Below, one piece after another: positions 1,462 through 34,669 of a stretch of DNA of 64,000 nt. The position numbers were made by a program, and so were the translations under genes. Each line of letters begins with the position of its first letter. Position 1 is the first letter of the stretch. The DNA is from Ignavibacteriota bacterium (GTDB lineage Bacteria > Bacteroidota > Ignavibacteria > UBA10030). The notes beneath the pieces were generated by a model. That model did not search any database. It saw only the letters and a program-made list of their open reading frames with translations, and was not told the origin of the DNA. The DNA is taken from positions 320,001 to 384,000 of the forward strand of contig CAVSHO010000001.1 of the NCBI GenBank assembly GCA_963727825.1, read 5' to 3'.

Positions 1462-1475
1462 CTATTCAGGATTTC

Positions 1476-2348: not shown

Positions 2349-2355
2349 TTCGACT

Positions 2356-3240: not shown

Positions 3241-3297
3241 TTGATTGTTCCTTTATACAATGGTCAATTAATTCATTTTTTTTGTGATTTAAATATA

Positions 3298-3336
3298 GGT
3301 AAACATTCTGTAACAAGGTTGTTAAGAAATTGTTAA
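3298..3336 (-). promoter_or_regulatory. Pho-box-like array upstream of pstS2
   Basis: Minus strand TTAACA-N5-TTAACA-N5-GTTACA-N5-TTTACC (11-bp period), followed by TATATTT. Confidence 0.8.
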
Positions 3337-3423
3337 CAAATAGAACGGACGCAGATTGAATAGTACCCTAACGAGTAACATTAAAAGATAGAAGAAAGAA
3401 ACAGAGTGAGGAGATGGACGGTT

Positions 3424-4086: not shown

Positions 4087-4115
4087 AAGGTCTGCTTCCT
4101 TCTTAAAGAGAATGA

Positions 4116-4913: not shown

Positions 4914-4923
4914 TACGGTTTCC

Positions 4924-6707: not shown

Positions 6708-6726
6708 AATTTACGATCAACATAAC

Positions 6727-6764
6727 GCCGGGCAGTAACAATTCACCATTTGCTACTACCCGGC
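6727..6764 (-). terminator. Intercistronic stem-loop between pstS1 and pstC1
   Basis: GCCGGGCAGTAACAA / TTGCTACTACCCGGC imperfect inverted repeat. Confidence 0.55.
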
Positions 6765-6814
6765 CATTGCGCAGTAATAGTTGATGTTTCCAACCAAGGA
6801 GCTACACTGCGAAG

Positions 6815-7852
6815 TTATTTTGTTACGATAGAAGAAATTTTCTTTTCGCACATTTTAATTACATCTTTAGGCAATGGTGCATAATAGAGATCTTTTGCAT
6901 AGGATTGGCCTTCATTCATTGCCCATTTTAAAAACTTTACAATCTCTTGGGCTTTTTCCTTGTCTTTCATGTTCTTATAGATTAACAACCAGGTAAACCC
7001 GCTGATGGGATAAGAATCTTTTCCCGGTGCATCAGTCAGGGAGACACGGAAGTCCTCCGGCATATTCTTCGATGCGCCTGCAGCTGCAGCCGATACCGCA
7101 TCAAAGTTTGGTACGATAAAGTTCCCTTCCTTATTTTGGATGGCAGCATAGGATAATCCATTTTGGACAGCATAGGCTAACTCGATATACCCGATTGCAC
7201 CTTCCGATTGTTTCACTAAACCTGCAACGCCTTCATTTCCCTTTCCACCCAAGCCAATCGGCCAGTTAACCGATGTGCCTTTACCAATATTCATAGCCCA
7301 AGTTTTACTGATTTTATTCAAATAATCTGTAAATATATTTGTTGTGCCGCTTCCGTCTGAACGATGAGCAACGATAATCGATACATTGGGCAGCGTCTTT
7401 CCCGGGTTGATATCGGCAATCGATTTGTCATTCCACTTTCTTATCTGACCGAGGAAAATTTTTGCAAGAACATCTGGAGACAGGCGAAGGTCTTTGCCTG
7501 CTGCCGGAAGGTTGTAGGTTACTACAACAGCACCCATTACGGTCGGGATGTGCAATACATCTGAACCTTGCTTTTCTTTGATGGTATTCAATTGTCCATC
7601 TGTCAAAGCAGCATCAGAAGCACCAAAGTCTACTGTTCCGTCGGTAACTGCCTTGATGCCGCCGCCGCTACCAATAGATTGATAATTGAATTGCACGCCA
7701 TTTTGTTTGCTATACACGTCGAACCACTTTGAATAAATGACGTACGGGAATGTAGCACCGGCGCCATTGAGCTTCATCTGTGCAAGCGTTGTTCCGAAAA
7801 GGATAACAACAAGCGCCAGACTCATATATACTTTTGTAAATTTCATTTCCAT
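6815..7852 (-). CDS. pstS: Phosphate-binding protein PstS (E. coli-type, system 1)
   Basis: Signal peptide; GAGATFP, YQSIGSGGG, DFGASDA, RSDGSGTT, GKGNEGV, YPISGFTW. Confidence 0.95.
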   Translation of the reverse strand: MEMKFTKVYMSLALVVILFGTTLAQMKLNGAGATFPYVIYSKWFDVYSKQNGVQFNYQSIGSGGGIKAVTDGTVDFGASDAALTDGQLNTIKEKQGSDVLHIPTVMGAVVVTYNLPAAGKDLRLSPDVLAKIFLGQIRKWNDKSIADINPGKTLPNVSIIVAHRSDGSGTTNIFTDYLNKISKTWAMNIGKGTSVNWPIGLGGKGNEGVAGLVKQSEGAIGYIELAYAVQNGLSYAAIQNKEGNFIVPNFDAVSAAAAGASKNMPEDFRVSLTDAPGKDSYPISGFTWLLIYKNMKDKEKAQEIVKFLKWAMNEGQSYAKDLYYAPLPKDVIKMCEKKISSIVTK

Positions 7853-20584: not shown

Positions 20585-22384
20585 GTGGTTTATGTGAATT
20601 ATAAAAATGTTCACATTGATTTGGAAGCAGTCCTTGCGAAATATGTACCTTCGTATTGGCAAAAACTTCCCTTAGTATTGCATGCACCTGTCGTTCGATT
20701 CTTCCATCGTATCTTATCGATGGACAGGATAGAAAAGTTCTTATTAGATCATCGCGGCGTTCGAGGTTTCAATCTAATCGATGATTTGTTCGATATGCTT
20801 GAAGTCTCGTTTCTTGTATCGTTACGCGAAATGGAGCGGATACCGACATCCGGTAAAGTCGTCTGCGTCAGTAATCATCCCTTAGGCGGACTTGACGGGC
20901 TTGTTATTTTAAAAGCTATTTACGAAGTCCGTTCCGATGTTCGCATTGTTGTAAACGATGTGCTGCTCAATTTGGAGAGCCTTGCAGATCTGTTTCTTCC
21001 TGTAGATATATTCTCCGGTGTGAACGCCCGCGCAAACAGTCGCAGGATTGATAAATCATTAGCATACGATGAAGCCGTTGTATTTTTTCCTGCTGCAGAA
21101 GTATCACGTATGTCATTGCGCGGTATTACCGATACGAAATGGCACACAGGAGCAGTACGATTTGCCCAACATCATAAAGCTCCGATTCTTCCAATGTATG
21201 TTGGCGCAAAAAATTCAAAATTCTTCTATGGAGTATCACTCATTTCGAAAAAAGCATCGATGCTTTGCTTACCTCATGAAATGCTTCGCAAGAAACCAAA
21301 ACCGATTCGCTTACATGTGGGTGAAATAATTCCGTATGATGCTTTTGCTCATCTACATGCAAAAGCAGCAACAAAACTCATGCGCAAACAAGTTGAAGCA
21401 TTACCTTTTGGTAGAAAAGGACCATTTAGAACAGAACGGGGCATTGCACGACCAATGGAGAAACGAGTACTTCGCCATGAGCTCGATGCTGCGATGTGTT
21501 TAGGATCACCAGCCTCGCGGAAGAAATTGTTCCTCATTACAGCTAATGAGTCGCCACTTGTTGTTCGTGAAATTGCCAGGCTGCGGGAGATAACATTCAG
21601 GCAGGTAAGCGAAGGAACTGGGAAAAGGCTGGATATTGACTCATACGATCAGAGCTATAGGCACTTAATTCTTTGGGATGATGAACGTATGGAAATTATC
21701 GGTGCCTATAGGCTTGGATTCTGCGATGAGATTTTGCCTATCCAAGGAGTACAAGGAATGTACGCTTCGTCTCTTTTTCATTTCTCGGAAGCATTTCTCC
21801 GATTGCTTCCTTTTGCAGTTGAAATGGGGCGCAGTTTCATTCAACGTCCGTATTGGAATTCGCATGCCCTTGAATATTTGTGGGCTGGAATTGGTGCGGT
21901 GATCGCTAATGAACCGACGGTGAAATATCTTTACGGGCCTGTTTCTATAAGCGGAACGTATACTGAGGAAGCGAAAGAAGCGATAGTGTATGTCTGTTCC
22001 AAATGGTACGGCGCACCGGATGGATATGTAACCTCGTTACACCCCTATCGCATAACATATGAAAAGAGAGCAACTCTACATGAATATTTTTGCGGAACAT
22101 CGTACCAGGAGGATTTAAATAAATTGAAGCTGCGTTTGCGTGCCATTGGTGTTTCCGTTCCTACATTGATACGACAGTATTCGGAACTCTGCTCGCCAGG
22201 GGGAGTGCGGTTCTGTGATTTTGGTATCGATGAAGGATTTGGGTCTTGCATCGATGGATTATTCCAATTAGATATGACACATCTGACTCCTGAAAAGTAT
22301 GATCGCTATATCGCACAATATGCATCTGTCCTCCGATATCCGGGGCGAACTATACCGCAGCTGGCCATTCCTTCTGTGTCATAG
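20585..22384 (+). CDS. olsF: Bifunctional ornithine-lipid synthase-like protein (PlsC-type acyltransferase plus GNAT/OlsB-type domain)
   Basis: NHPLGGLDG and FPAAEVSR; EIARLREITFRQVSEGTG, IIGAYRLG, VEMGRSF, VPTLIRQY. Confidence 0.8.
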   Translation: MVYVNYKNVHIDLEAVLAKYVPSYWQKLPLVLHAPVVRFFHRILSMDRIEKFLLDHRGVRGFNLIDDLFDMLEVSFLVSLREMERIPTSGKVVCVSNHPLGGLDGLVILKAIYEVRSDVRIVVNDVLLNLESLADLFLPVDIFSGVNARANSRRIDKSLAYDEAVVFFPAAEVSRMSLRGITDTKWHTGAVRFAQHHKAPILPMYVGAKNSKFFYGVSLISKKASMLCLPHEMLRKKPKPIRLHVGEIIPYDAFAHLHAKAATKLMRKQVEALPFGRKGPFRTERGIARPMEKRVLRHELDAAMCLGSPASRKKLFLITANESPLVVREIARLREITFRQVSEGTGKRLDIDSYDQSYRHLILWDDERMEIIGAYRLGFCDEILPIQGVQGMYASSLFHFSEAFLRLLPFAVEMGRSFIQRPYWNSHALEYLWAGIGAVIANEPTVKYLYGPVSISGTYTEEAKEAIVYVCSKWYGAPDGYVTSLHPYRITYEKRATLHEYFCGTSYQEDLNKLKLRLRAIGVSVPTLIRQYSELCSPGGVRFCDFGIDEGFGSCIDGLFQLDMTHLTPEKYDRYIAQYASVLRYPGRTIPQLAIPSVS

Positions 22385-22562
22385 CATCATAATATATTCT
22401 TAATTCTCTAATAACATCAAATAGTTATTTTAAACAAGAATTTTCGTTTACAAAGATATTTTGTTCTGTTCGTGGTTTTTATCTAGGAGCGTTTGTTCCC
22501 TCAGAAACGAAGTGATAGAGAAATATGACAAGAAAGATTATGAATAACAGGAAGAATGTTTT

Positions 22563-23552
22563 GTGAGTATGATCCAGCAGTTTAATTTCTCGATAATCCG
22601 CATTGATTGGATGTTACTGCTTCTGCCGATGCCCTTCTTCATCGGTATGCTGCTGGACACACTCGCATGGAAGCAATTGCTTCCGCCACATCTTACCTTG
22701 CGGTTCAAATCATTATTTGGTGCACAAGTGGGAACGGAAGCAGTGCTCCTTTCCATTCCCGGCGGCTTTGCCATGACGGATCCGATCAAACTGTATATTC
22801 TTAAACAACGGTTTCACATTCCGCCTTTGGAAGTGTTTACTAGCCTTATTACACGTCATTGGCTGTTGGGAATTACACAACTTATTTTTATAAGCTCAGT
22901 TTGTCTGTTTGGATTTGTCGTTTCAGAACAACAATTACTGACTTCCTATATCCAGGATGGAACATTGTTCATCGCGATAAGCGTACTCATCACTGTGAGT
23001 CTCGGCCTTGGTTTTGTCGTCCGAAAACTCATGCGCGGTACACTTGCCCGTGATGTCTGGAAAATCCTATATAGGATGAATATCCGATTGTTGAGAGAGA
23101 AATTGAAAAGAGCAATAGGTTCTTTCAAAGAGGCCGACCGTTGCTTCGAAGCATTATGTAAAAGAAATGCGTCGAGTATTATATACGCAGCAATGTTTTA
23201 TCTTCTCTTGTGGACAATGGATGTGTGGGAAACAATGCTGGTTGCCCACGCAACAGGATTTCAAATTTCCATTATTAATGCTTTTCTCATTGAAGCAGTT
23301 CTTTCTGCTGTCCGTTTAAGCGTATTCTTCCTTCCTGGAGGTGTCGTAGTAAAAGAACTCGGATATTTTGCTCTCTTTACATCATTTAATCTTGGTATTT
23401 CTATGATTCGGATTTGTTCATTTGTTTTAATAAAGCGTCTGGTATCCATTCTTTGTATTCTTATCGGTTATCTCGTTCTCCTAAGACAAAGAATAGGCAC
23501 GATTTGGAAACATTCATCGATTCCTTATCAAACTATTATGGAAAGTCAATGA
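22563..23552 (+). CDS. Lysylphosphatidylglycerol-synthase TM / flippase-like membrane protein
   Basis: Multi-TM; LDTLAW, IPGG, FFLPGGVVVKELGY, LIKRLV. Confidence 0.75.
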   Translation: MSMIQQFNFSIIRIDWMLLLLPMPFFIGMLLDTLAWKQLLPPHLTLRFKSLFGAQVGTEAVLLSIPGGFAMTDPIKLYILKQRFHIPPLEVFTSLITRHWLLGITQLIFISSVCLFGFVVSEQQLLTSYIQDGTLFIAISVLITVSLGLGFVVRKLMRGTLARDVWKILYRMNIRLLREKLKRAIGSFKEADRCFEALCKRNASSIIYAAMFYLLLWTMDVWETMLVAHATGFQISIINAFLIEAVLSAVRLSVFFLPGGVVVKELGYFALFTSFNLGISMIRICSFVLIKRLVSILCILIGYLVLLRQRIGTIWKHSSIPYQTIMESQ

Positions 23553-24547
23553 AAAAAAAGATCTTACATATTGGGGGAACGTGGAACCAAATTACTCAAC
23601 TACACCAGATTGCAGATATGCTCCCCGAGTATGATCACTGTTTTTCTCCACAGTATTGTGATGGATTATTACGCGTTATTCAGAAATGGGGTTGGTTGGA
23701 TTTCACTGCTCCTGGACGTCCTTGGGTCAAGAGGATAAAAAAGTATATCCATGATCACCAACTCCAGGAAGACTGCGGCGGTGAATCAGGAGATTACGAT
23801 TTAACATTGATTACGACGGATTTAATTGTGCCAAAAAATATTTTGAATGGAAAAGTTGTTCTTGTGCAAGAAGGAATGACCGATCCCGAGAACTTTATGT
23901 TTCGGATGGTTAAATGGTTTCCATTCCTGCCTCATTGGATTGCCAGCAGTTCTGCTAACGGATTGAGCAATAAGTACAATGTACTCTGCGTTGCAAGTGA
24001 GGGTTATCGTGATTTGTTTATACAGAAGGGCGTGAAACGCGAAAATATTATTGTAACAGGTATTCCGAATTTTGATAATTGTAAAAAGTTTTATAACAAC
24101 ACATTTCCATTCCACAAATATGTTTTAGTGTGTACTTCGGATTCGCGCGAAACTTTCAAGTTTGAGAACAGAAAGAAATTCGTGCGACAGGCATATGAAT
24201 TTGCTGACGGCCGACAACTAATTTTCAAACTTCATCCCAATGAAAATATTAAACGTGCAACGAAAGAAATCAATACCTATGCACCAGGTGCTTTAGTGTT
24301 TACAAATGGGAATACTGAAGAAATGATCGCAAACTGTGATGTATTGATAACACAATATTCAAGCGTTGTGTACGTAGGAATTGCTTTGGCAAAAGAAGTG
24401 TACTCGTATTTTGACGTCCAGATGCTGCGAAGATTATTGCCACTGCAGCATGCTTCTGCAGCAAAAAACATTGCACAGGTATGTCGTCTGCTCCTCGAAA
24501 CAGAATCGGTGAGTGTTCCTGACTTATCTTTCGAGATAGTTTCTTGA
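23549..24547 (+). CDS. GT-B fold transferase (CMP-ulosonate transferase / TagF-like)
   Basis: ATGA overlap with the upstream gene; VTGIPNFD, FKLHPNE (HP motif), DVLITQYSSV. Confidence 0.6.
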   Translation: MKKKILHIGGTWNQITQLHQIADMLPEYDHCFSPQYCDGLLRVIQKWGWLDFTAPGRPWVKRIKKYIHDHQLQEDCGGESGDYDLTLITTDLIVPKNILNGKVVLVQEGMTDPENFMFRMVKWFPFLPHWIASSSANGLSNKYNVLCVASEGYRDLFIQKGVKRENIIVTGIPNFDNCKKFYNNTFPFHKYVLVCTSDSRETFKFENRKKFVRQAYEFADGRQLIFKLHPNENIKRATKEINTYAPGALVFTNGNTEEMIANCDVLITQYSSVVYVGIALAKEVYSYFDVQMLRRLLPLQHASAAKNIAQVCRLLLETESVSVPDLSFEIVS

Positions 24548-25356
24548 AAAAGCTGATTATTATACAGGCACGGCTTGGTTCTTCGCGGCTGCCGCGGAAA
24601 GTGATGATGCCATTGAAGGGAAGTCCTTTGCTTCTGCGTATGATTCAACGGGTAACAACTGCGAAAGTAGATTGCGACCTCATTGTTGCGACAACAACGA
24701 ATCCCGAAGATGATGCTATCAGGGATCTTTGTCAGAAGTTCAATATTCCTTGCTACAGTGGTCATCCGATCGATTTGTTAGATCGGCATTACCAAGCTGC
24801 TCTGCAAGAACATGCCGATGTGGTTATTAAGATTCCTTCAGATTGTCCTTTGATCGATCCACGGGTCATTGATAAAGTAGTCAAATACTATGAAGATCAT
24901 GCGGATCAGTATGATTTTGTGAGTAATCTTCATCCTGCAACTTATCCGGACGGGAATGATGTAGAAGTGATGCCATTCGATATTCTTGAAATTGCATGGA
25001 GAGAAGCTGCTCGTTTACTGGAACGTGAGCATACCACACCATTTATCTGGGAACATCCAGAACGATTTAGAATTGGAAATGTACTCTGGGAAACTGGTAA
25101 AAATTTTTCAATGACTCATCGCTGGACGATCGATTATCCTGAGGATTATATCTTCATCAAAAAAGTATATGATTACCTGTGTACGCCAGACTCCCCAGTA
25201 TTTTCAATCTATGATATCCTGGAATTACTGAAGCAGGAACCGATCCTGCCTCTTTTGAATGTAAAATATGCAGGTGTCAATTGGTACAGGCATCATTTAA
25301 ATGAATTAAAAACAGTGACATCGAAAGAAACAAAAATATTATTAGAAACGGCTTAG
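24544..25356 (+). CDS. SpsF-like cytidylyltransferase (CMP-ulosonate synthetase family)
   Basis: IIQARLGSSRLPRKV, SDCPLIDP, EREHTTP, RWTIDYPED. Confidence 0.85.
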   Translation: MKKLIIIQARLGSSRLPRKVMMPLKGSPLLLRMIQRVTTAKVDCDLIVATTTNPEDDAIRDLCQKFNIPCYSGHPIDLLDRHYQAALQEHADVVIKIPSDCPLIDPRVIDKVVKYYEDHADQYDFVSNLHPATYPDGNDVEVMPFDILEIAWREAARLLEREHTTPFIWEHPERFRIGNVLWETGKNFSMTHRWTIDYPEDYIFIKKVYDYLCTPDSPVFSIYDILELLKQEPILPLLNVKYAGVNWYRHHLNELKTVTSKETKILLETA

Positions 25357-25357
25357 C

Positions 25358-26215
25358 ATGTTAGATGAACAAACTCAAATTTTGAAAGATCGCGCGCTTC
25401 ATGTGCGTGAACATATTATCCGGATGGCAACTGACGGCGGTTGCTTTATAGGTGCATCCCTTTCATGTGTCGACCTTATTGTATTTATGTATTCCGACCT
25501 ATTAAATATTACACCGGATAGCATTGATAATCCTGAGCGTGATTATTTCTTTCTTTCTAAGGGGCATGGTGTCCCCGCGTTGTATGGAGCACTCGCCGAA
25601 TTAAACTTCATGCCAAAAGAACGGTTATTACAGCATTTAAAAATATCCAATTCCATGTATTGGCATCCGAATCGATCAATTCCAGGGGTTGAATTTCATT
25701 CGGGTTCGTTAGGACATTTGCTCGCAGTTGCAATCGGTGTTGCCTACGACATAAAGATTCGAGATGGAAACAATCGTGTCTTTGTACTTCTCGGTGATGG
25801 TGAATTGAACGAAGGTTCAATCTGGGAGGCATGCCTTTCTGCTGCAGCACACCAACTTGATAATCTTATCGTAGTCGTGGATCGGAACGAATTTCAGGCA
25901 AATGCACGGACAGAGGAACTTATTCCGCTCGAACCGATTGGAGCAAAATTTGGAGCATTTGGCTGGACCTGGAAAAGGATCGATGGTCATGACTTCAAAG
26001 CAATGGATGCTGTTTTTCATTGTCTTCCATTTCAACATGGGAAACCTAATGTTATTATCGCGAATACCGTACGCGGAAAAGGATTACCCAGCATAGAACA
26101 GCGGGCAGATAGATGGTTCGCCGACTTCACAAAACAGGAAATGGAAATGCTATTGCAAGAATTGCACAGTTCGGTTCCCACCGACATCTCCTCTGAAACT
26201 CTTATGGTTCAATAA
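25358..26215 (+). CDS. Transketolase N-terminal (ThDP-binding) subunit
   Basis: LSKGH, SGSLGH, GDGELNEGSIWEA, IDGHD, TVRGKG. Confidence 0.9.
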   Translation: MLDEQTQILKDRALHVREHIIRMATDGGCFIGASLSCVDLIVFMYSDLLNITPDSIDNPERDYFFLSKGHGVPALYGALAELNFMPKERLLQHLKISNSMYWHPNRSIPGVEFHSGSLGHLLAVAIGVAYDIKIRDGNNRVFVLLGDGELNEGSIWEACLSAAAHQLDNLIVVVDRNEFQANARTEELIPLEPIGAKFGAFGWTWKRIDGHDFKAMDAVFHCLPFQHGKPNVIIANTVRGKGLPSIEQRADRWFADFTKQEMEMLLQELHSSVPTDISSETLMVQ

Positions 26216-26216
26216 C

Positions 26217-27185
26217 ATGACATACGAAGAGAAGCTTGCACAATTATGTGCACAAAATTCCAAGTTGATGATCCTCACCGCTGAAAATCGCGCAGTCATT
26301 CGATCTCTTCCAACGGGACTCGGCAAACGATTCATAGATTTCGGCATTGCAGAGCAAACAATGGTTGGGGCAGCCGCCGGCCTAGCATTGCGTGGGAGAA
26401 TTCCAATAGTACACGCCTTGGCGACATTTCTTACCATGCGTGCATTTGAGTTTATCAGGACGGATGTAGGAATCGCCAAATTGCCTGTAAAATTAATTGG
26501 CGCCGTTCCAGGATTCCTCTCCGATGGCAATGGCCCGACTCATCAAGCGATTGAAGATATTGCACTAATGCATTCGATTCCTTCTATGCAGATATTCTGC
26601 CCATCTGATATTGATGAACTTGTCGATGGACTTGATCAGGTAATCCAAAGTAAATATCCATGTTATGTTCGCTTTAATGCTCGGTCCTCAGTGATTAAGC
26701 ATTTTACGCCATTTGTGTTCGGAGTATCCGAAACAATTACCGATGGATTTGATATAACAATATTGACTTATGGTTTTTTATTGGAACAAGCACTCATTGC
26801 CAGGGAACTCCTGGAAAAGTCGGGAGTGTCAGTTCGTCTTATCAATCTTCGCAGTCTTCATCCTATTGATGAATCCACAATTTTACGAGCCGCTCGAGAG
26901 ACACGGCTGCTCGTGACAGTTGAAGATCATTTTTTAAACGGTGGCCTGTTTAGTATTCTCAGCGAGATTCTTGTTAGAACTCAAACAATGGTCAATGTAT
27001 TGCCAATCGCACTGGAACAATGCTGGTTCTCACCTGGCATATTGCAGGATGTACTTGAACATGAAGGATATACAGGCAAGCAGCTTTCTCAACGAATTCT
27101 TACCAAGTTTACATCAATTCATCAGAATCACATAAAAGTTTCCAAGCATCATAAAGTTTCATTTTTCATACGATCAATTTGTTAA
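26217..27185 (+). CDS. Transketolase C-terminal subunit
   Basis: FGIAEQTMVG, RAFEFIR, GPTHQAIED, TVEDH. Confidence 0.9.
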   Translation: MTYEEKLAQLCAQNSKLMILTAENRAVIRSLPTGLGKRFIDFGIAEQTMVGAAAGLALRGRIPIVHALATFLTMRAFEFIRTDVGIAKLPVKLIGAVPGFLSDGNGPTHQAIEDIALMHSIPSMQIFCPSDIDELVDGLDQVIQSKYPCYVRFNARSSVIKHFTPFVFGVSETITDGFDITILTYGFLLEQALIARELLEKSGVSVRLINLRSLHPIDESTILRAARETRLLVTVEDHFLNGGLFSILSEILVRTQTMVNVLPIALEQCWFSPGILQDVLEHEGYTGKQLSQRILTKFTSIHQNHIKVSKHHKVSFFIRSIC

Positions 27186-27198
27186 AAAAGGGGTTGGT

Positions 27199-28548
27199 AT
27201 GGCAAACACTGTACAAAACAACGAACGATATCCGGATATTACTCAATCGAATAAATTGTATACTCGCGCCTTAACGCTTATTCCTTCACAAACTCAAACG
27301 CTTGCCAAAGGTCCGGGGCAATATATAAAAGGTGTCGCCCCTAAATATCTTGTGCGCGGGAAAGGTTCGCATGTGTGGGATGCAGACGGAAATGAGTTTA
27401 TCGATTATAATATGGGCATTGGTCCGCTATCCCTCGGATATTGCTACCCAGCTGTCGATGAAGCAATCAAGGAACAACTGCAGAACGGAATAACGTTTTC
27501 CATGATGCATCCGTTGGAAGTAGAGGTTGCAGAGTATATCCATGCACTTGTGCCGAGTGCAGAAATGGTTCGTTTCAGCAAGACCGGTGCCGACGTCACG
27601 AGTGCTGCCGTACGATTGGCGCGTGCCTTTACAGGAAGAAACAAAGTTCTTTGCTGTGGGTATCATGGCTGGCATGATTGGTATATAAGTGTCACGGATC
27701 GCGATAAAGGAATTCCGCGGGAAATAGCTAATCTCACACACACGTTCAATTACAACGACATCGATTCGGTTGTTGATTCGATCGACAGTGAGACTGCATG
27801 CGTTATCCTTGAGCCTATTGTGTTCGAAGAACCTAAGGACAACTTTCTTCATTTACTAAAGGGAATATGCGAACAGAATGGAACATTATTGATTTTCGAT
27901 GAAATGTGGACCGGCTTTCGCTTAGCGCTTGGTGGCGCGCAGGAATATTTCGGCGTGAAAGCGGACCTTATGACTTTTTCAAAAGCGATTGCTAACGGGA
28001 TGCCTCTTTCGGTTCTCACGGGGCGCGCCGATGTAATGCAGTTGCTTGAAAAGGATGTATTCTTCTTTACAACATTCGGTGGCGAGGCACTTTCTCTTGC
28101 AGCCGCAAAAGCGACAATTCTCGAAATGTTAGCTCACCAAGTTCCGCAGCGCATTGCCGCACAAGGCAAAAAGTTGCGCACAGGTCTCGATGCAATTCTG
28201 AAGGAAGAAGATATTTATTTTATAAATTGTCGTGGATTTGATTGCAGAACAATGCTTTCAATTGATTCATCTGTTAATAATCCGCTTGCATTAAAATCGT
28301 TTATTCAGCAAGAGTTCTTCAAGAGAGGCATTTTATGGAGTGGGTTTCATAACATCTCTTACTCTCATACCGACGAAGATATCGAATATACCCTAAAAGC
28401 ATATCGTGAAGTGCTAATATATGCAAAACGAGCTGTGCAGGATGATATTGTACTTAATTCTCTTTGCGGTGAAGTTGTGGAGCCGGTTTTTCGGAAGACC
28501 AGCAACTTTCACACTAAGCCAAAGATAGAGGTCGATGGGAAAAAATGA
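27199..28548 (+). CDS. Class III PLP aminotransferase (GSA-aminomutase-like, sugar-pathway type)
   Basis: WDADGNEFID, YHGWHDW, IFDEMWTGFR, FSKAIANGMP. Confidence 0.88.
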   Translation: MANTVQNNERYPDITQSNKLYTRALTLIPSQTQTLAKGPGQYIKGVAPKYLVRGKGSHVWDADGNEFIDYNMGIGPLSLGYCYPAVDEAIKEQLQNGITFSMMHPLEVEVAEYIHALVPSAEMVRFSKTGADVTSAAVRLARAFTGRNKVLCCGYHGWHDWYISVTDRDKGIPREIANLTHTFNYNDIDSVVDSIDSETACVILEPIVFEEPKDNFLHLLKGICEQNGTLLIFDEMWTGFRLALGGAQEYFGVKADLMTFSKAIANGMPLSVLTGRADVMQLLEKDVFFFTTFGGEALSLAAAKATILEMLAHQVPQRIAAQGKKLRTGLDAILKEEDIYFINCRGFDCRTMLSIDSSVNNPLALKSFIQQEFFKRGILWSGFHNISYSHTDEDIEYTLKAYREVLIYAKRAVQDDIVLNSLCGEVVEPVFRKTSNFHTKPKIEVDGKK

Positions 28549-29363
28549 ATTCACTTTTTTCGTTGACGGATAAGGTTGCGTTAGTAACTGGCGCATTAGG
28601 TTTGCTTGGCAGGCAGCATTGCGATGCGCTTGCTCAATCAGGTGCGAATATCGTCGTAACCGATGTCGATCAGGAGGGATGCAATGCTTTTGCCAGAGAT
28701 CTTGCCTCAGAATACCATATCACTGCTTTTGGATGTGCAATGGATATTACCAACGAGGAATCGCTGTGTAGCGTTCGTGATGCGATGCTGAAACAATTCG
28801 GCAGGCTTAATATTTTGGTCAACAATGCTGCGATCAATGATTTAGTTGAAAAACGTAGCAACAAAGTAGATTATTCAAGTTTTGAATTTTTTCCGCTCCA
28901 AGAATGGAAACAATCTCTAGAAGTGAATGTAACCGGGCTTTTCTTGTGCTGCAGAATATTTGGTGCGCTTATGGTTGAAAACGGGAGCGGTAGTATTATT
29001 AATATCGCATCAACCTATGGAATGGTCGCACCTAACCAGTCTATCTATGTTCGCCCCGATGGTACGCGATTAATGTTCAAATCACCAGCATATCCTACAA
29101 CGAAAGGTGCAGTGTTGGCTTTGACAAAATACTTGGCGGCATATTGGGGAAGCAAGGGTATTCGCGTGAATGCTCTTTCACCGGGTGGAGTCGAAAATGG
29201 GCAGGAAGAATTTTTTGTCGAAAATTATTCTGCGAAAACACCTCTGCAGCGCATGGCACATCCAAATGATTATAAAGGCGCAATAGTTTTTCTAGCGAGC
29301 GATGCATCCCAGTATATGACCGGTGCAAATTTAGTCGTGGATGGTGGTTGGACAATCTGGTAA
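28545..29363 (+). CDS. Short-chain dehydrogenase/reductase
   Basis: TGALGLLG, NNAA, YPTTK (YxxxK), IRVNALSPGG, VVDGGW. Confidence 0.9.
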   Translation: MNSLFSLTDKVALVTGALGLLGRQHCDALAQSGANIVVTDVDQEGCNAFARDLASEYHITAFGCAMDITNEESLCSVRDAMLKQFGRLNILVNNAAINDLVEKRSNKVDYSSFEFFPLQEWKQSLEVNVTGLFLCCRIFGALMVENGSGSIINIASTYGMVAPNQSIYVRPDGTRLMFKSPAYPTTKGAVLALTKYLAAYWGSKGIRVNALSPGGVENGQEEFFVENYSAKTPLQRMAHPNDYKGAIVFLASDASQYMTGANLVVDGGWTIW

Positions 29364-29373
29364 TGAAAAGTTA

Positions 29374-29982
29374 ATGGGAAAAAACCCGATAAAACTTATA
29401 GCAACTACCAATAAAAGCGGATTAAAAAGACGCGCAGATCGAATACGGCTGTTATTAACCGATTGCGATGGCGTACTAACGGATAATGGTGTGTACTATT
29501 CTGATCATGGCGAGGAGATGAAACGATTCTCTATTCGTGACGGTATGGGAGTCGCTCGGTTGCGAAGTGCAGGAATTGAGATAGGGATCATTTCAGGAGA
29601 GGCGTCACGGAGTTTGCAGCAACGTGCCGAGAAACTATGTATTACTCATTTATATCTTGGTGTGAAAGATAAACTTCAGCAGGTAATATCTATTGCCAAA
29701 CATCATAACATTCCCCTGGAGGCCGTTGCATATATCGGAGATGATGTAAATGATATCAATGTTATGTCTAAGCTGTATGAAATAAGCTTGACTGCTGTTC
29801 CCAGTGATGCTTTACCTTCAGTACATCGCTTGGCACATTACGTATGTACATGCAATGGAGGACATGGTGCTTTCCGCGAATTTTCAGATTGGATTCTTGA
29901 TCTCCGCGGCACAGAAAAACCTGTCAATGAAACATATGAAAAAATAGATAATTCACTTATTCTTTCAAAGGTAAAAGTATGA
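29374..29982 (+). CDS. KdsC-family HAD phosphatase (ulosonate-phosphate phosphatase)
   Basis: LTDCDGVLTD, FSIRDGMG, YIGDDVND, GGHGAFRE. Confidence 0.88.
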   Translation: MGKNPIKLIATTNKSGLKRRADRIRLLLTDCDGVLTDNGVYYSDHGEEMKRFSIRDGMGVARLRSAGIEIGIISGEASRSLQQRAEKLCITHLYLGVKDKLQQVISIAKHHNIPLEAVAYIGDDVNDINVMSKLYEISLTAVPSDALPSVHRLAHYVCTCNGGHGAFREFSDWILDLRGTEKPVNETYEKIDNSLILSKVKV

Positions 29983-30908
29983 ATTCCGATGTTTTACGAG
30001 TTGGGCACAAATTTATAGGCGCTAATCAGCCTGTATATGTCATAGCCGAAATCGGCATCAATCACAATGGTTCATTAGAATTAGCAAAGAAGCTTATTGA
30101 TGCTGCATTTCTTGCTGGATGTGATGCGGTTAAATTTCAAAAACGAACCCCCGTAAAATGCGTTCCAATAGATCAATGGAATATCGAGCGCGATACACCA
30201 TGGGGACGCATGACATATATCAACTACCGCAATAAGATGGAATTTGGGAAGGAACAATTTGACGAGATCGATCAATACTGTCGTGTACGCGGAATTGCAT
30301 GGTTTGCATCTTGCTGGGATGAAGACTCCGTCGATTTTATGGAACAATATGCTGTCCCGTGTTACAAAGCACCTTCTGCCTCGCTTACAGACATAGAACT
30401 TCTTCGCAAGATGAAATCTACAGGCAAACCGTTAATCATCTCTACCGGTATGTCGACAATGGATGAAATTGAAACAGTCTTTGATTGTATAGGTCTCGAT
30501 AATCTTTTAATCGCACACACAACATCTACCTATCCTTGTCCGCTCCATGAAATTAATCTCCGGATGATTCAAACACTACAGGAAAAGTATATTAATAATC
30601 CTATCGGTTACTCAGGCCATGAAACGGGATTATCGCCTACATGGGCGGCTGTTGCACTGGGCGCAACGTTTGTCGAACGACATATCACACTTGATCGAGC
30701 GATGTGGGGAAGTGATCAGGCGGCTTCCGTGGAAATAGGCGGGCTTATACGACTTGTTCAAAATATTCGTGACATTGAGCGTGCATTTGGCGATGGTATC
30801 AAGCGGGTTTATCCGAGCGAGATTGGCCAGCGGAACAAATTACGTCGTATTAATTCTCTGGATCCGGTTTCCATATCAACTGAACGTTCCATGGTTTGTT
30901 CGCCATGA
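29979..30908 (+). CDS. NeuB-family ulosonic acid synthase (short form, no C-terminal AFP-like domain)
   Basis: IAEIGINHNG, AVKFQKR, ISTGMST, GYSGHE, VERHITLDR, GSDQAAS. Confidence 0.9.
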   Translation: MNSDVLRVGHKFIGANQPVYVIAEIGINHNGSLELAKKLIDAAFLAGCDAVKFQKRTPVKCVPIDQWNIERDTPWGRMTYINYRNKMEFGKEQFDEIDQYCRVRGIAWFASCWDEDSVDFMEQYAVPCYKAPSASLTDIELLRKMKSTGKPLIISTGMSTMDEIETVFDCIGLDNLLIAHTTSTYPCPLHEINLRMIQTLQEKYINNPIGYSGHETGLSPTWAAVALGATFVERHITLDRAMWGSDQAASVEIGGLIRLVQNIRDIERAFGDGIKRVYPSEIGQRNKLRRINSLDPVSISTERSMVCSP

Positions 30909-31080: not shown

Positions 31081-31172
31081 CAGGGAATGTTCTCTTACTT
31101 TATTGTGAGTAAAAAAAAACTGTATATTGTGTCTATAAATATGATCGCATGATATTTTATTAAGGATTATTG

Positions 31173-31667
31173 ATGCTGGTTTATATTCTTCGCCATGGAA
31201 TTGCAGCGCCACGCGGTGTCAAACCATACCCAAATGATGATCGTCCTCTCACAGAAGAAGGTATTGAGAAGATGTTAAAAGGCGCAATGGGAATTGTGCA
31301 TCTGGTAGATGATGTAGATATTATTTTAACGAGCCCAATGATACGGGCTGCCGAAACTGCTAAGATTGTCGCAAAGGCATTACACATTGAATCAAAACTC
31401 CAGATTTGTAATGAGCTAAGTCCGGGGAGTTCATTAAAGAATCTTCTTACGTACCTTGCAAAATTTAAAAAATTGAGAGGTATCATGATTGTCGGTCATG
31501 AACCGGATCTTGCTTATTTCGCTTCTGCATTGCTGGGTAAGAAAACACCAGTTATTGAATTTAAAAAGGGTTCACTTTGCTGCATAGAAGTGACCACAAT
31601 ACCATCGAAAAAAGATGGGAAATTACTCTGGCTTGTTACGCCAAAACAATTACGATTGATGGCATAA
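31173..31667 (+). CDS. sixA: Phosphohistidine phosphatase SixA
   Basis: LRHGIA, DRPLTEEG, TSPMIRAAETA, VGHEP, FKKG. Confidence 0.9.
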   Translation: MLVYILRHGIAAPRGVKPYPNDDRPLTEEGIEKMLKGAMGIVHLVDDVDIILTSPMIRAAETAKIVAKALHIESKLQICNELSPGSSLKNLLTYLAKFKKLRGIMIVGHEPDLAYFASALLGKKTPVIEFKKGSLCCIEVTTIPSKKDGKLLWLVTPKQLRLMA

Positions 31668-31682
31668 AAGAAAGAAGGAAAA

Positions 31683-32396
31683 ATGTCCCGCGTTTTTGAA
31701 CAAGATCACCAGCTACCCGGCCGATTAATTATTGTCGAAGGGATAGATGGATCCGGCAAGTCAACACAATTGCAATTGCTGCATAAGTGGCTCCTCAATT
31801 CGAAATATCGAACATTTTTTACAGAATGGAATTCATCAGCACTGGTAAAAGAAACAATTAAGTATGGGAAAAAGAAAAATCTTCTAACACCAACGACGTT
31901 TTCCATTTTGCATGCAACAGACTTTGCCGATCGTTTGATGCACTTGATCATTCCTCCGATGAAAGCAGGAATGATTGTCTGTGCAGATCGGTATATCTAT
32001 ACCGCTTTTGCCCGCGATGTTGTGCGTGGCGTCCATCCGGAATGGGTGCGCAATTTGTATGGCTTTGCAGTTAAGCCGGATATCGGATTTTATTTTAAAG
32101 TACCGATAGAAGTTTCCCTCAATCGTATTTTAACAGGCAGAGTGGAATTGAAATTTCATGAAGCCGGAATGGATATGGGCCTCAGCGAAGATCCGAAGGA
32201 AAGTTTTCGGTTGTTTCAATCCAAGATACTTGAAGAATATGACAGGATCGCAGCGGAATTCGGTTTGAGTGTTATCGATGCGACCCTTTCTATTCAAAAA
32301 CAACAGACAATGGTTCGCGAGATCATCAGAGAGAAGTTGAAAGATTATGAGCCCACGCCATTCCTAAGAAAGAAGGAAAATGTCTATGTTGCATAA
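31683..32396 (+). CDS. Thymidylate-kinase-fold P-loop protein A
   Basis: EGIDGSGKST, ADRYIYT, EAGMD. Confidence 0.85.
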   Translation: MSRVFEQDHQLPGRLIIVEGIDGSGKSTQLQLLHKWLLNSKYRTFFTEWNSSALVKETIKYGKKKNLLTPTTFSILHATDFADRLMHLIIPPMKAGMIVCADRYIYTAFARDVVRGVHPEWVRNLYGFAVKPDIGFYFKVPIEVSLNRILTGRVELKFHEAGMDMGLSEDPKESFRLFQSKILEEYDRIAAEFGLSVIDATLSIQKQQTMVREIIREKLKDYEPTPFLRKKENVYVA

Positions 32397-33147
32397 AAAA
32401 AATGTGTTTTATGGTACCGGGCTGCCTTATGTTGATGCTCATGAAATGAAGGGAAAACTCATTGTCATTGAAGGCACAGATGGAGTAGGGCGATCAACCC
32501 AAATTGAATCATTAAAGAAATGGCTCGAGGTTAAAGGATATGGAGTTGCGACAACCGGATGGACTCGCTCGCCGCTGATGGGCAATGCAATTGATGAAGC
32601 GAAATCGGGCCACACACTCAACGTAAACACCTTTAGTCTATTATATGCTGCAGATTTTGCCGATCGCCTAGAGCATGAAGTGATTCCTGCATTGAAGGCA
32701 GGGTTTATTGTTCTCGCAGACCGCTACATTTATACAGCGTTCGCCCGGTCGATAGTCCGTGGTGCAGACTCACAGTGGATTCGAAAAGTCTTTGGTTTTG
32801 CACTTGTGCCTGACGCAGTATTTTATATGCGCGTGCAAATTGAAGATTTGATTCCCCGTGTAATCAACAGCAAGACATTGAATAGACGCTATTGGGAAGA
32901 AGACTTAGGCGAAGGAATGGATTACTGGGAATCAGGTATGGATCTGCATCTCGGAGAGGATTTTTACGACAGCTTTATGGAGTACCAGAAACGTATTCTT
33001 CATGAATTTCACAAGATGTCCAAAGAATTCAGATTTCAGGTTGTGGATGCGTCACGTTCGTTTGAAGAAATCAATAGGGAATTAAAACAGGGGATATTAC
33101 TCATCCTAAATCATGAAAGATCCGAAGAAAAATCTAGCCGCAATTGA
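32380..33147 (+). CDS. Thymidylate-kinase-fold protein B (P-loop Lys replaced by Arg)
   Basis: EGTDGVGRST, ADRYIYT, ESGMD. Confidence 0.85.
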   Translation: MSMLHKKNVFYGTGLPYVDAHEMKGKLIVIEGTDGVGRSTQIESLKKWLEVKGYGVATTGWTRSPLMGNAIDEAKSGHTLNVNTFSLLYAADFADRLEHEVIPALKAGFIVLADRYIYTAFARSIVRGADSQWIRKVFGFALVPDAVFYMRVQIEDLIPRVINSKTLNRRYWEEDLGEGMDYWESGMDLHLGEDFYDSFMEYQKRILHEFHKMSKEFRFQVVDASRSFEEINRELKQGILLILNHERSEEKSSRN

Positions 33148-34669
33148 TATCGGAACAAATTCCTTCCATCTCATTGTAGCCGAAGTCAATACTGAGACGG
33201 GGCGGTTTAAAATTCTTGGAAAAGAAAAAGAAGTTGTCCGTTTGGGGTCTGGTTCGACGGATATGAAATATCTTTCCGAGCTTGCTATGAACCGTGGTAT
33301 TGAAGTCCTAAAACGATTTCGTATTGTTGCGGATGCTTTTCAAGCAGATGTGCGGGCAATTGCCACGAGCGCTGTACGCGAAGCGATCAACAAACAGGAT
33401 TTTGTTCGCCGCGTGAAGATAGAAACCGGAATTCGGATAGAAATTGTCTCCGGTTTCGAAGAGGCACGGTTAATTTATTTAGGCGTGTTGCAGGCGCTGC
33501 CTGTGTTTCATAATAAAATACTACTTGTTGATATCGGTGGAGGCAGCACCGAGTTTCTCATCGGGGAAAAACGGTCTATTTACTTCAGCAATAGCCTAAA
33601 ACTTGGAGCAGTCCGGTTAACAGAGCGATTTTTAGAATCAGGGAACCTCAGCCGGAAAACTGTCGAAGAATGCAGAAAATATGTGCGCGGATTTCTGGTT
33701 CCGATTATTCGCGATGTAAAAAAACAACAGTTCGAGGTTTGCATCGGAACTTCTGGTACTATCAACAACCTGGCAAATATTATACGAACAAATCGTGGTG
33801 AGGCAATTGAGCTTCCATTAAACAATGTTTCTTTCTCACGGGCAGAATTACTTGAAACTGTTAAGAATATACTCACGTTTATAACGCCCATCGAAAGAAT
33901 GGAAATTGAAGGATTAGATCCCGACCGTGCTGATATTATGCCTGCCGGAGCTATCATTCTTGAACAAATTTTTCTGGCACTGGGTATAAAAATATTAACC
34001 GTTTCGGAATATTCATTACGCGAAGGAATTCTTCTCGACAGCATAGAAAAAATGCACACGAAGAAGCCGTCTGTGTATCTCCACAATCTTCGACGGAGCA
34101 GTGTTCTTCATTTGGCCGAGATTTATCATTATGAAAAAAAACATGCGCATCACGTGAACGCCTTGGCGTTGCAACTGTTCGATCAGACCAAATATCTCCA
34201 TAAACTCAATGGACAGGCGCGTGAATATCTTGAAGCAGCGGCAATTCTCCATGAAGTAGGATCATTCGTTTCGCATACACAGCATCACCGGCATTCCTAT
34301 TACCTGATTAGGAACGCAGAACTGTTTGGCTATACAGAAAACGAGAAAGAAATTATCGCGAATGTTGCACGCTATCATCGTAAGAGCCATCCTAAGATAA
34401 AACATGAGGGATACAATCTTCTTTCAAACGAAGATAAGATATTAGTATCTAAACTTGCCTCCCTTTTGCGTATTGCTGATGGTCTCGACCGTTCGCATGC
34501 CTCACGAATCCAACAATTGAAGGTACGCAAGATTAGTCGAAAACTTCGTGTCCGGGTTTATCATGCATCAAAAGTCAAGCCGGATTTAGAATTGTGGGGT
34601 GCGAACCGGAAGAAGCAATTGTTTGAAATTGTTTTTCGAAAAAGAATTGAATTTGTAGCAGTATCTTAA
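33113..34669 (+). CDS. ppx: Exopolyphosphatase Ppx/GppA (long form with HD-like C-terminal domain)
   Basis: AIDIGTNSFH, ATSAVREA, EEARL, DIGGGSTE, LREG, ARYHRKS, LRIADGLD. Confidence 0.95.
   Translation: MKDPKKNLAAIDIGTNSFHLIVAEVNTETGRFKILGKEKEVVRLGSGSTDMKYLSELAMNRGIEVLKRFRIVADAFQADVRAIATSAVREAINKQDFVRRVKIETGIRIEIVSGFEEARLIYLGVLQALPVFHNKILLVDIGGGSTEFLIGEKRSIYFSNSLKLGAVRLTERFLESGNLSRKTVEECRKYVRGFLVPIIRDVKKQQFEVCIGTSGTINNLANIIRTNRGEAIELPLNNVSFSRAELLETVKNILTFITPIERMEIEGLDPDRADIMPAGAIILEQIFLALGIKILTVSEYSLREGILLDSIEKMHTKKPSVYLHNLRRSSVLHLAEIYHYEKKHAHHVNALALQLFDQTKYLHKLNGQAREYLEAAAILHEVGSFVSHTQHHRHSYYLIRNAELFGYTENEKEIIANVARYHRKSHPKIKHEGYNLLSNEDKILVSKLASLLRIADGLDRSHASRIQQLKVRKISRKLRVRVYHASKVKPDLELWGANRKKQLFEIVFRKRIEFVAVS

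Follow-up and report, generated by a model that had tools for sequence, protein, structure and literature searches.

A candidate operon for an amino-ulosonic sugar and its transfer to a membrane lipid in an Ignavibacteriota bacterium

Introduction

The closest known chemistry to that considered here is the Shewanella pathway for 8-amino-3,8-dideoxy-octulosonate (Kdo8N), which comprises KdsA/KdsC, the oxidase KdnB, the transaminase KdnA, KdsB and WaaA. Our subject is a candidate pathway encoded by nine genes in a 64-kb stretch of DNA from an Ignavibacteriota bacterium (contig CAVSHO010000001.1; "the window" denotes this whole stretch). The genes specify an HpnL-like membrane protein, a GT-B-like enzyme of an uncharacterised family (hereafter the transferase), a cytidylyltransferase, a transketolase divided between two genes, a class III aminotransferase, a short-chain dehydrogenase/reductase (SDR), a HAD phosphatase of the KdsC type and a short NeuB-family synthase. 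An earlier note, made from the letters of this DNA, had read them as a Pho-linked route by which a non-acetylated amino-ulosonate is activated with cytidine monophosphate (CMP) and attached to a lipid or to lipid A, and had likened the amination to that by KdnB and KdnA, taking the latter for a class III enzyme. This last point needs correcting: KdnA is of the DegT type, and the Shewanella report describes KdnB as an iron-containing alcohol dehydrogenase (Fe-ADH) (PMC5125639).

Two other groups of pathways bear on the locus. Those leading to ketodeoxynonulosonic acid (KDN) and sialic acids use NeuB or a KDN-9-phosphate (KDN-9-P) synthase, a KDN-9-P phosphatase and NeuA. On the lipid side, the literature records sphingolipids in Chlorobium (PMC10626005) and an "aminoglycosphingolipid" in Chlorobium limicola (PMC11762602). 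It also describes serine palmitoyltransferase (Spt), bCerS and CerR as the known bacterial ceramide pathway, its genes being "often found clustered" (PMC11334938; PMC11087976), and a variant of this gene set with a polyketide synthase (PKS) (PMC12134224). The comparative analysis presented here leaves the earlier interpretation, taken as a whole, partly supported.

Results

Co-occurrence of the transferase and NeuB

We searched 301 genomes of the window's phylum for the transferase and for NeuB, accepting as NeuB orthologues matches with E<=1e-90. The transferase is present in 100 of the 301 genomes. A NeuB orthologue (63-80% identity) accompanies it in 99 of these, the sole exception being G161, against none of the 201 transferase-negative genomes. 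Genera in which the distribution is patchy give identical counts for the two genes (1/5 genomes in g1, 1/2 in g5, 3/4 in g10, 2/3 in g16 and 4/5 in g30). This co-occurrence supports the central proposal of the earlier note, that a CMP-activated, non-acetylated amino-ulosonate is passed to a membrane acceptor.

The same holds for 61 genomes of the class that contains Candidatus Thermochlorobacter (L009), named Chlorobiia by NCBI: 56 have the transferase, which is single-copy among the matches listed, the same 56 have a NeuB orthologue (66-75% identity), and the same five lack both. The link persists even when the genes are hundreds of kilobases apart. In G042, a transferase/HpnL-like pair and a NeuB/HAD pair are separated by such a distance on one contig; the HAD phosphatase adjoins NeuB in all six Chlorobiia-class NeuB loci fetched.

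As a side observation, an inorganic pyrophosphatase gene precedes the HAD-NeuB pair in five of six Chlorobiaceae-type loci (L102-L107), with PPK2 nearby in three of the six. The pyrophosphatase may serve to remove pyrophosphate for the CMP-synthetase rather than to regulate.

Exchange of the amination enzymes

Orthologues of the window's class III aminotransferase (64-71% identity) occur in 11 of the 61 class genomes, three further matches being paralogues at 33% identity. Orthologues of a KdnA-like DegT aminotransferase occur in 44, none of them among those 11. Exactly one of the two types is found in 55 of the 56 transferase-positive genomes, and neither in any of the five negative ones; in the exception, G045, which has neither, the transferase lies ~1.9 kb from a contig end. 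In G010, G028, G031, G035, G042, G044 and G054, no more than about 4 kb separate the DegT gene from the transferase.

In the Chlorobiaceae-type order, a 251-aa CTP_transf_3 enzyme comes after the transferase, then an Fe-ADH and a DegT-type aminotransferase; clustering of neighbouring genes places the last two in six of the eight Chlorobiia-class loci. The top solved relative of the DegT enzyme is the Shewanella Kdo8N transaminase (5k8b, 260 bits), the next scoring 169. The Fe-ADH passes its Pfam threshold and reaches 57 bits with the 8-oxidase of 3-deoxy-manno-octulosonic acid (Kdo) (5k8c), other Fe-ADHs scoring higher. The cytidylyltransferase of this version is NeuA-like, its best solved relative being a CMP-N-acetylneuraminate synthetase (6ifd, 133 bits), and is 21% identical to the window's enzyme. 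A third version occurs in a Syntrophobacteraceae metagenome-assembled genome (MAG) (L031), whose transferase belongs to the type B clade described below; it consists, in this order, of the transferase, a CTP_transf_3 enzyme, a DegT aminotransferase, an SDR, NeuB and an MsbA-like ABC exporter.

Set side by side, the window's operon has an SDR, a class III aminotransferase, an SpsF-like synthetase and an HpnL-like protein, and the Chlorobiaceae-type operon has an Fe-ADH, a KdnA-like aminotransferase, a NeuA-like synthetase and an HpnL-like protein. The window's operon lacks enzymes of the KdnA/KdnB type, with class III aminotransferase and SDR in place of DegT and Fe-ADH. Constant in all three versions are the transferase and NeuB, while the HAD phosphatase and the HpnL-like protein are common to the window and the Chlorobiaceae type only; dehydrogenase, aminotransferase, CMP-synthetase and flippase or exporter are exchanged. 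Judged by these families, amination is conserved as a predicted function, not as ancestry. With the aminotransferases, dehydrogenases and CMP-synthetases all swapped, a pathway that oxidises, aminates, activates with CMP and transfers is well supported, and we regard the exchange as the strongest evidence for the predicted route of ulosonate synthesis, oxidation, transamination, CMP activation, transfer and export. None of the three versions contains an acetyltransferase gene, which fits a free amine.

Two neighbours of the transferase in this class deserve mention. In all eight Chlorobiia-class loci (L094-L101), a gene for a 610-650-aa AMP-binding protein, resembling acyl-CoA/ACP synthetases, is divergent from the operon of HpnL-like and transferase genes. 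A thymidylate-kinase-like gene beside the transferase in Chloroherpetonaceae loci proved to be an ordinary kinase of deoxythymidine monophosphate followed by TilS, and hence lies outside the system.

The transferase family

The listed open reading frame (ORF) of the transferase begins at 23414, but alignment with 29 relatives places the start at the ATG at 23549, which yields a 332-aa protein whose gene overlaps that of the membrane protein by 4 nt. Across the 30 aligned sequences, H229-P230, the HP of the motif FKLHP, is invariant (30/30); FKLHP as a whole is among the invariant motifs, the others being QEG (Q107-E108-G109), EEMIANCD and SS. The match to PF04464 (Glyphos_transf) is marginal and covers only profile positions 132-280 of 367. 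The sole PDB profile match is to the TagF-like Cps3D (E 0.004), over a C-terminal "CD-LIT-YSS" stretch. Pfam, NCBIfam and PDB profiles gave no sequence match to sialyltransferase families, and Pfam and NCBIfam none to Kdo-transferase families. GT-B sialyltransferases have a conserved HP motif and an acidic D/E-D/E-G motif, from whose strict form the QEG of the transferase differs. TagF-type enzymes and GT-B sialyltransferases both release CMP, which fits the presence of a cytidylyltransferase partner in every operon version.

At E<=1e-20, 6813 relatives are found in a wider protein collection, most of them named "hypothetical protein" and one "glycosyltransferase", and a homologue in the ESM Atlas leads only to clusters of hypothetical proteins. 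No description of the family turned up in the literature searched, mostly without subscription journals, so an earlier description is possible. In a scan of one genome per species we obtained 227 relatives and analysed the loci of the best 80 of these, which are 51-77% identical to the window's transferase and span Ignavibacteriota, Bacteroidota, Chlorobiota, Acidobacteriota, Desulfobacterota, Planctomycetota, Verrucomicrobiota, NC10 and Proteobacteria. In 23 of the 80 loci, which we call type A, the transferase is followed by the window's sugar genes; clustering identifies a FA_hydroxylase gene, usually the last of the operon, in 14 loci. In 37 loci, which are from other phyla (type B), Spt/AONS, GNAT (bCerS-like) or CerR-like genes are found no more than 9 kb from the transferase, a count that rises to 43 when a KS-AT-ACP-KR-DH PKS is included. 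The Spt/AONS-type gene of type B loci is either free-standing or fused with AMP-binding and ACP domains; further genes encode a GNAT of roughly 378 aa and an NAD-epimerase-type reductase, and frequent companions are an ABC-2 exporter, a radical-SAM/SPASM protein and a phosphopantetheinyl transferase (PPTase). In a FastTree of 79 sequences, rooted at the midpoint, type A and Chlorobiia transferases form one clade and those of type B another.

One gene order recurs in L018, L054, L069, L077 and about 20 other loci from Desulfobacterota, Planctomycetota and others: a PKS of roughly 2050 aa (KS-AT-ACP-KR-DH), a PPTase, an ABC ATPase, an ABC-2 permease, a radical-SAM/SPASM protein, the transferase, a Spt-like AONS and an SDR. 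This cluster looks like a PKS-type sphingolipid pathway.

Ceramide genes

On contig C13 of the window's own genome (G000), genes for an AONS, a 372-aa GNAT and an epimerase-type reductase stand side by side. Among NCBIfam models, the AONS scores best with serine palmitoyltransferase (487 bits, under the cut-off of 640). Identities of the trio to type B cluster genes, used here in place of reference bCerS and CerR proteins, are 44% for the AONS, 36% for the GNAT and 36% for the reductase. By these similarities the genome can probably make ceramide through an Spt, bCerS-like and CerR-like trio, and ceramide is the likeliest acceptor, though not a proven one. Orthologues of Spt (63-68% identity) and of the bCerS-like gene (44-46%) were found in all five Chlorobiia-class genomes tested, and a bCerS-like gene occurs in 93 of the 100 transferase-positive genomes of the phylum sample. 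Family f19 has the full operon with FA_hydroxylase in all five of its genomes; we return to its lipid genes below. In one f19 locus (L108, G069:C33), a LytTR-type histidine kinase and response regulator at 14760-16623 (-) directly precede the operon, which suggests dedicated regulation in a lineage without Spt, bCerS and OlsF.

The operon of the window

The window comes from a genome of 3.12 Mb in 14 contigs. Its nine genes are intact ORFs in the ORF list of the window (22563-30908, + strand), with overlaps of 4-23 nt or gaps of 1-13 nt between neighbours, spacing as expected of an operon (Table 1). Pfam and NCBIfam matches confirm the families named in the earlier note, as well as its statement that wzx/wzy, NeuC, DegT and acetyltransferase genes are missing from the nine. 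Its starting point for the cluster, 22389, is too early, the first possible start codon lying 174-180 nt further on. The closest named relative of the locus is in an Ignavibacteriota MAG (L004), with protein identities of 67-91% across the operon and downstream genes. Promoter and terminator scans gave counts equal to or under the shuffled expectation; the hairpin at the end of neuB is weak evidence for the end of the operon because such sites number 12 in the region against 12.4 expected by chance.

Table 1. Features of the operon and its surroundings. Coordinates are positions within the 64-kb window; all operon genes are on the + strand.
Feature	Coordinates	Strand	Evidence or remark
Two pst operons and phoU	616..7852	-	Distant context, at least 14.7 kb from the operon
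OlsF, bifunctional ornithine-lipid synthase	20585..22384	+	NCBIfam NF052615, 653 bits (cut-off 620); context, outside the conserved system
Polytopic membrane protein, HpnL/LPG_synthase_TM-like	22563/22569..23552	+	TIGR03476, 51.8 bits, sub-cut-off
GT-B-like transferase, uncharacterised family	23549..24547	+	PF04464, 26 bits (cut-off 22.1)
CTP_transf_3 cytidylyltransferase	24544..25356	+	PF02348, 96.7 bits (cut-off 22.6)
Transketolase N-terminal (thiamine pyrophosphate-binding) subunit	25358..26215	+	PF00456, 95.8 bits
Transketolase C-terminal (pyrimidine-binding) subunit	26217..27185	+	PF02779, 95.6 bits; PF02780, 73.3 bits
Class III (glutamate-1-semialdehyde (GSA)-aminomutase-like) aminotransferase	27199..28548	+	PF00202, 170.6 bits
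SDR dehydrogenase	28545..29363	+	adh_short_C2, 171.7 bits
KdsC/YrbI-type HAD phosphatase	29341..29982	+	TIGR01670, 137.4 bits (cut-off 106.95)
Short NeuB-family synthase, 309 aa	29979..30908	+	PF03102, 252 bits (cut-off 22.1)
Terminator-like hairpin at the end of neuB, possible operon end	30890..30907	+	Terminator scan, weak evidence
SixA, two thymidylate-kinase-like paralogues, exopolyphosphatase Ppx	31170..34669	+	Downstream context

The sugar enzymes belong to recognisable superfamilies and fall short of the profiles that would name a substrate. NeuB is under the cut-offs for synthases of N-acetylneuraminic acid (Neu5Ac; TIGR03569, 247.2 versus 399.65) and pseudaminic acid (Pse; TIGR03586, 193.1 versus 340.25); PF03102 covers its residues 39-275, the protein ends shortly after, without a further domain, and its best PDB match is 6ncs (290 aa). 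For the phosphatase, the best NCBIfam row is the Bacteroides KDN-9-P phosphatase NF058599 (157.5 bits, under the cut-off of 180), nearly equalled by KdsC PRK09484 (153.9 bits). The cytidylyltransferase is far under the NCBIfam equivalog cut-offs of KdsB, PseF and NeuA, and its best PDB match is 6oew, titled "Cytidylyltransferase" (122 bits). The aminotransferase scores 384 bits with PRK06209 (cut-off 486) and has as solved relatives GSA aminomutases and aminoglycoside C-6' aminotransferases, while the best NCBIfam rows for the SDR are generic sugar-acid and other SDRs, all sub-cut-off.

The operons of L007 and L053 lack the split transketolase, and among the eight Chlorobiia-class transferase loci it was found in L099 only. 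NeuB keeps 66-75% identity where operons lack it, and the transketolase probably feeds a common sugar-phosphate pool, as precursor supply, rather than defining the product. Aminoshikimate logic joins an oxidoreductase, an aminotransferase, a phosphatase, a transketolase and a PEP (phosphoenolpyruvate)-condensing synthase. We considered such a logic for the transketolase and disfavour it, given the same conservation of NeuB and the two operons without transketolase.

The membrane protein has at least six hydrophobic segments, remains below the HpnL cut-off (51.8 versus 195.65 for TIGR03476) and has no Pfam match at 1e-3. A relative in L014 passes PF03706 (LPG_synthase_TM, 88.6 bits) and is only 24% identical to it. 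An HpnL-like protein adjoins the transferase in all eight Chlorobiia-class loci and in 10 of the 80 named loci; in L031, the operon is followed by the MsbA-like ABC exporter.

Phosphate context

OlsF ends 185 nt before the operon. The succession of OlsF, operon, SixA, two kinase-like genes and Ppx recurs in one genome of the same genus (L110 in G137). In L004, the downstream SixA-Ppx part is kept and OlsF is not found within about 9 kb upstream, and none of the other type A loci has the OlsF or the SixA-Ppx flank. Of the five further genomes sampled from the window's genus, four lack the transferase. The adjective Pho-linked, used in the earlier note, therefore stands as a description of the window, which holds pst, phoU, OlsF and Ppx, and not as one of the system, the arrangement from OlsF to Ppx recurring in that single same-genus genome; judged from gene positions, the label would combine a local feature with a hypothesis.

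Direct repeats with an 11-bp period (TGTAAC / TGTTAA / TGTTAA) precede pstS2 at 3309-3336 (+), and a similar pair (GTTAACAGAAA / GATAACAGAAA), whose resemblance was found post hoc, precedes sixA at about 31085-31110 (+). These repeats could be a Pho-box-like operator of this lineage. A pattern built from the region upstream of pstS2 matches the window four times where 0.59 would be expected; the source site itself accounts for two of these matches, and the window scan found none before olsF or the operon. We did not accept the pattern as evidence for control of the operon by Pho. Part of the stretch is covered by five DNA sequencing runs from two studies, with no RNA run listed.

Several neighbouring genes are recorded here for completeness. 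The two thymidylate-kinase-fold paralogues between sixA and ppx (31683-33147, +) are 42% identical to each other; a separate Tmk-like gene lies on contig C10 of the same genome (28% identity), and conservation of the pair alongside SixA and Ppx is confined to L004 and L110. As a speculation, the pair could act in recycling of CMP and cytidine diphosphate (CDP) or in polyphosphate-linked phosphorylation. In L110 (G137:C4, about 12760-14730), the matches to the window's HpnL-like protein and to its transferase are both broken into two pieces that lie in different frames; these copies may be frameshifted or decaying, or may reflect sequencing errors. Divergent from olsF, a hybrid histidine kinase (18697-20374, -) is split into two overlapping ORFs (19646-20374 and 18697-19740), which may be due to a frameshift or an assembly error. 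For a 381-aa ORF directly upstream of the first pstS (7914-9059, -), neither Pfam nor NCBIfam gave a match; to judge from where it lies, it may encode a phosphate-related protein of the outer membrane or periplasm.

Discussion

Proposed pathway and product

Our computations concern family membership, linkage and co-occurrence, from which we infer substrates, the position of the amine, the acceptor and the transferase reaction. NeuB would join PEP to a sugar phosphate, most simply mannose-6-phosphate to give KDN-9-P, and the KdsC-type phosphatase would remove the terminal phosphate, leaving a free ulosonate. The SDR would oxidise one hydroxyl of this ulosonate, and the class III aminotransferase would convert the carbonyl to an amine, yielding neuraminic acid if the carbon is C5 or a Kdo8N-like 9-amino sugar if it is the terminal one. 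After formation of the CMP-sugar by the cytidylyltransferase, the TagF/sialyltransferase-like enzyme would move the amino-ulosonate from CMP to a lipid at the inner face of the membrane, and the HpnL-like protein would flip the finished lipid. The acceptor would most likely be ceramide, for whose synthesis the genome has Spt, bCerS-like and CerR-like genes elsewhere, and the product would be a counterpart of the aminoglycosphingolipid of green sulfur bacteria.

The pairing of a NeuB-family synthase with a KdsC-family phosphatase points to a phosphorylated aldose substrate, as in the synthesis of KDN-9-P or Neu5Ac-9-phosphate, and KDN is the simplest intermediate because no version contains N-acetylhexosamine genes. 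The KdnA/Fe-ADH precedent, together with the aminoglycoside C-6' aminotransferase relatives, favours amination at the terminal carbon. DegT enzymes usually take 4-keto sugars, and a 5-oxo intermediate, by analogy the equivalent of these, would lead to neuraminic acid itself.

That a CMP-amino-ulosonate is put on a membrane lipid by the new transferase seems to us, from the gene families, highly probable. The full statement, ceramide acceptor included, we consider the likelier case while allowing for substantial doubt. A more far-reaching reading is offered tentatively, with the balance leaning slightly against it. It holds that the operon and its green-sulfur counterpart would supply the genes hitherto missing for a bacterial "ganglioside", in which ceramide carries an un-acetylated amino-nonulosonic acid made by a route not described before, KDN-type synthesis with subsequent oxidation and transamination. 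The transferase would then represent a new family of cytidine-nucleotide-dependent head-group transferases, of which a sister clade would decorate PKS/Spt sphingolipids in Desulfobacterota, Planctomycetota, Verrucomicrobiota, NC10 and others. If true, neuraminic acid would be made without an N-acetylhexosamine precursor, or else the product would be an isomeric 9-amino sugar that earlier chemistry could misread as neuraminic acid.

Weighing the acceptor

Several points count against the pathway as we propose it, with ceramide as the acceptor. The class sample (56/61) lies inside the phylum sample (99/100 and 0/201) and kin are not independent, the counts being descriptive and not a test. A bCerS-like gene is found in 140 of the 201 transferase-negative genomes too, so its presence in the positives is weak evidence. 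Sugar genes and sphingolipid genes were never found together (0/80 loci). The type B transferases form a separate clade whose donor may differ, which makes ceramide as acceptor for the window's clade an extrapolation; two genomes of the type B clade, G001 and G003, have no NeuB match, and a KdnA-like search in G001-G003 gave only many generic DegT paralogues. The five f19 genomes have no Spt orthologue, only paralogues at 29-32% identity in four of them, no bCerS-like gene (a single match at 21%) and no full match to OlsF (0/5); with the operon present there, ceramide is not the acceptor everywhere, unless it is made in another way. The putative GT-B-like fold of the transferase is indicated by a marginal TagF-type match, and by this likeness the enzyme may instead carry out phospho-transfer from a CDP-alcohol. 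The split transketolase has no assigned step. Finally, the link to green sulfur bacteria that the earlier note made is supported for the genes, the core of which is present in 56 of the 61 genomes of the class; the C. limicola lipid of 1991 reportedly contains neuraminic acid. In the literature searched, mostly without subscription journals, we found no genes assigned to this lipid, and an earlier description is possible.

The same sugar pathway could instead serve lipid A or the core of lipopolysaccharide (LPS), as a cationic or zwitterionic decoration paralleling Kdo8N in Shewanella. KdnA and KdnB, the nearest chemistry, do act for LPS according to the titles of 5k8b and 5k8c and to PMC5125639. 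The operon of f19 without ceramide genes and the MsbA-like exporter after that of L031 point the same way, as do two GT9 heptosyltransferase-type genes about 3-5 kb upstream in six loci. These six, however, count as one lineage because they share one common synteny block, and three unrelated genes, one of them on the other strand, separate the GT9 genes from the operon. The transferase matches no Kdo-transferase family, FA_hydroxylase closes the operon in 14 loci, and 37-43 of the 80 transferase loci are sphingolipid or PKS clusters, not LPS clusters. We therefore judge lipid A or LPS an unlikely acceptor; the suggestion of lipid A in the earlier note finds no support, and the comparative context favours a sphingolipid. 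Transfer to another phosphorus-free lipid, either a (possibly hydroxylated) ornithine lipid made by OlsF or diacylglycerol, during remodelling of membranes at low phosphate, strikes us as improbable to the same degree. In its favour, the gene for OlsF immediately precedes the operon in the same orientation, and no terminator is predicted in the 185 nt between them; the arrangement from OlsF to Ppx is retained in the same-genus G137, and pst, phoU and ppx are within the window. The FA_hydroxylase superfamily includes an ornithine-lipid hydroxylase, and f19 lacks ceramide genes. Yet f19 lacks OlsF as well, OlsF is not beside the operon in L004 or any other type A locus, and the Pho-box-like repeats precede pstS2 and sixA, not the operon.

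An ordinary surface-glycan locus, in which the ulosonate would go to an O-antigen, a capsule or a glycoprotein and the lipid link would be coincidental, is in our opinion very improbable. NeuB, CMP-synthetases, aminotransferases and split transketolases are common in polysaccharide loci, and for NeuB and the cytidylyltransferase the nearest relatives of solved structure have generic names only. The conserved block of the 23 type A loci, however, holds a single transferase and neither wzx/wzy nor further glycosyltransferases. Strain-variable glycan loci also differ from a system that is near-universal in one class (56/61 genomes), and the transferase is accompanied by a flippase-like membrane protein and a lipid hydroxylase and, in other loci, by ceramide genes. 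Ceramide remains for us the preferred acceptor, and a lipid head group the preferred product.

Read in this way, the locus offers candidate genes for a green sulfur lipid that, as far as our literature search reaches, has been unassigned since 1991. It also proposes a role as lipid head-group transferases for more than 6800 cluster representatives named "hypothetical protein", many of them in bacterial sphingolipid clusters. The pathway would be a route to amino sialic-like sugars without UDP-N-acetylglucosamine or N-acetylmannosamine, with three enzyme sets available for biochemical comparison, and it leads us to expect that anoxic sediments and soils contain sphingolipids that are zwitterionic and free of phosphorus, a target for lipidomic surveys.

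Comparison with known systems

With the Kdo8N pathway, the proposed route has in common the condensation of PEP with an aldose phosphate, dephosphorylation, oxidation of a hydroxyl, transamination, CMP activation and transfer to a membrane-anchored acceptor. The green-sulfur version adds a true KdnA homologue (5k8b, 260 bits) and a KdnB-like Fe-ADH. The differences are that the synthase is of the NeuB family and not KdsA, that the transferase is not WaaA-like, that the likely acceptor is a sphingolipid instead of lipid A, and that the dehydrogenase and aminotransferase of the window are an SDR and a class III enzyme. On this gene content, the window's operon is predicted to work like the Kdo8N system and is not a member of it. 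The likeness to KDN and sialic acid pathways lies in the NeuB-family synthase, the KdsC-family phosphatase and the CTP_transf_3 synthetase, which is NeuA-like in the Chlorobiaceae-type operon. Unlike in those pathways, NeuB is under the Neu5Ac and Pse synthase cut-offs and has no C-terminal domain, the phosphatase is under the KDN-9-P phosphatase cut-off, NeuC and acetyltransferase are missing, a dehydrogenase and an aminotransferase are added, and the transferase falls outside the described sialyltransferase families.

The transferase itself resembles TagF-like CDP-glycerol glycerophosphotransferases in its marginal Glyphos_transf and Cps3D profile matches, and GT-B sialyltransferases in its invariant HP and in QEG, which is similar to their acidic-acidic-G. 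It differs from both in its size of about 320-330 aa, without membrane-binding or polymerase extensions, and in constituting a separate family, whose members from different phyla are about 52-80% identical. Its relatives beside Spt/AONS, GNAT and CerR-like genes recall the glycosphingolipid synthesis of Caulobacter and Sphingomonas. To our knowledge, the known bacterial ceramide glycosyltransferases use UDP-sugar donors and belong to other GT families. For a CMP-ulosonate head group on bacterial ceramide, we found no assigned genes in the literature that could be searched, mostly of non-subscription journals. The enzymes all belong to superfamilies already known, and Kdo8N provides a chemical precedent. 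The novelty lies in the combination with a NeuB-type synthase, in three sets of enzymes that can replace one another, in the tie between an uncharacterised family of transferases and the sphingolipid clusters of many phyla, and in a concrete candidate gene set for the green-sulfur aminoglycosphingolipid.

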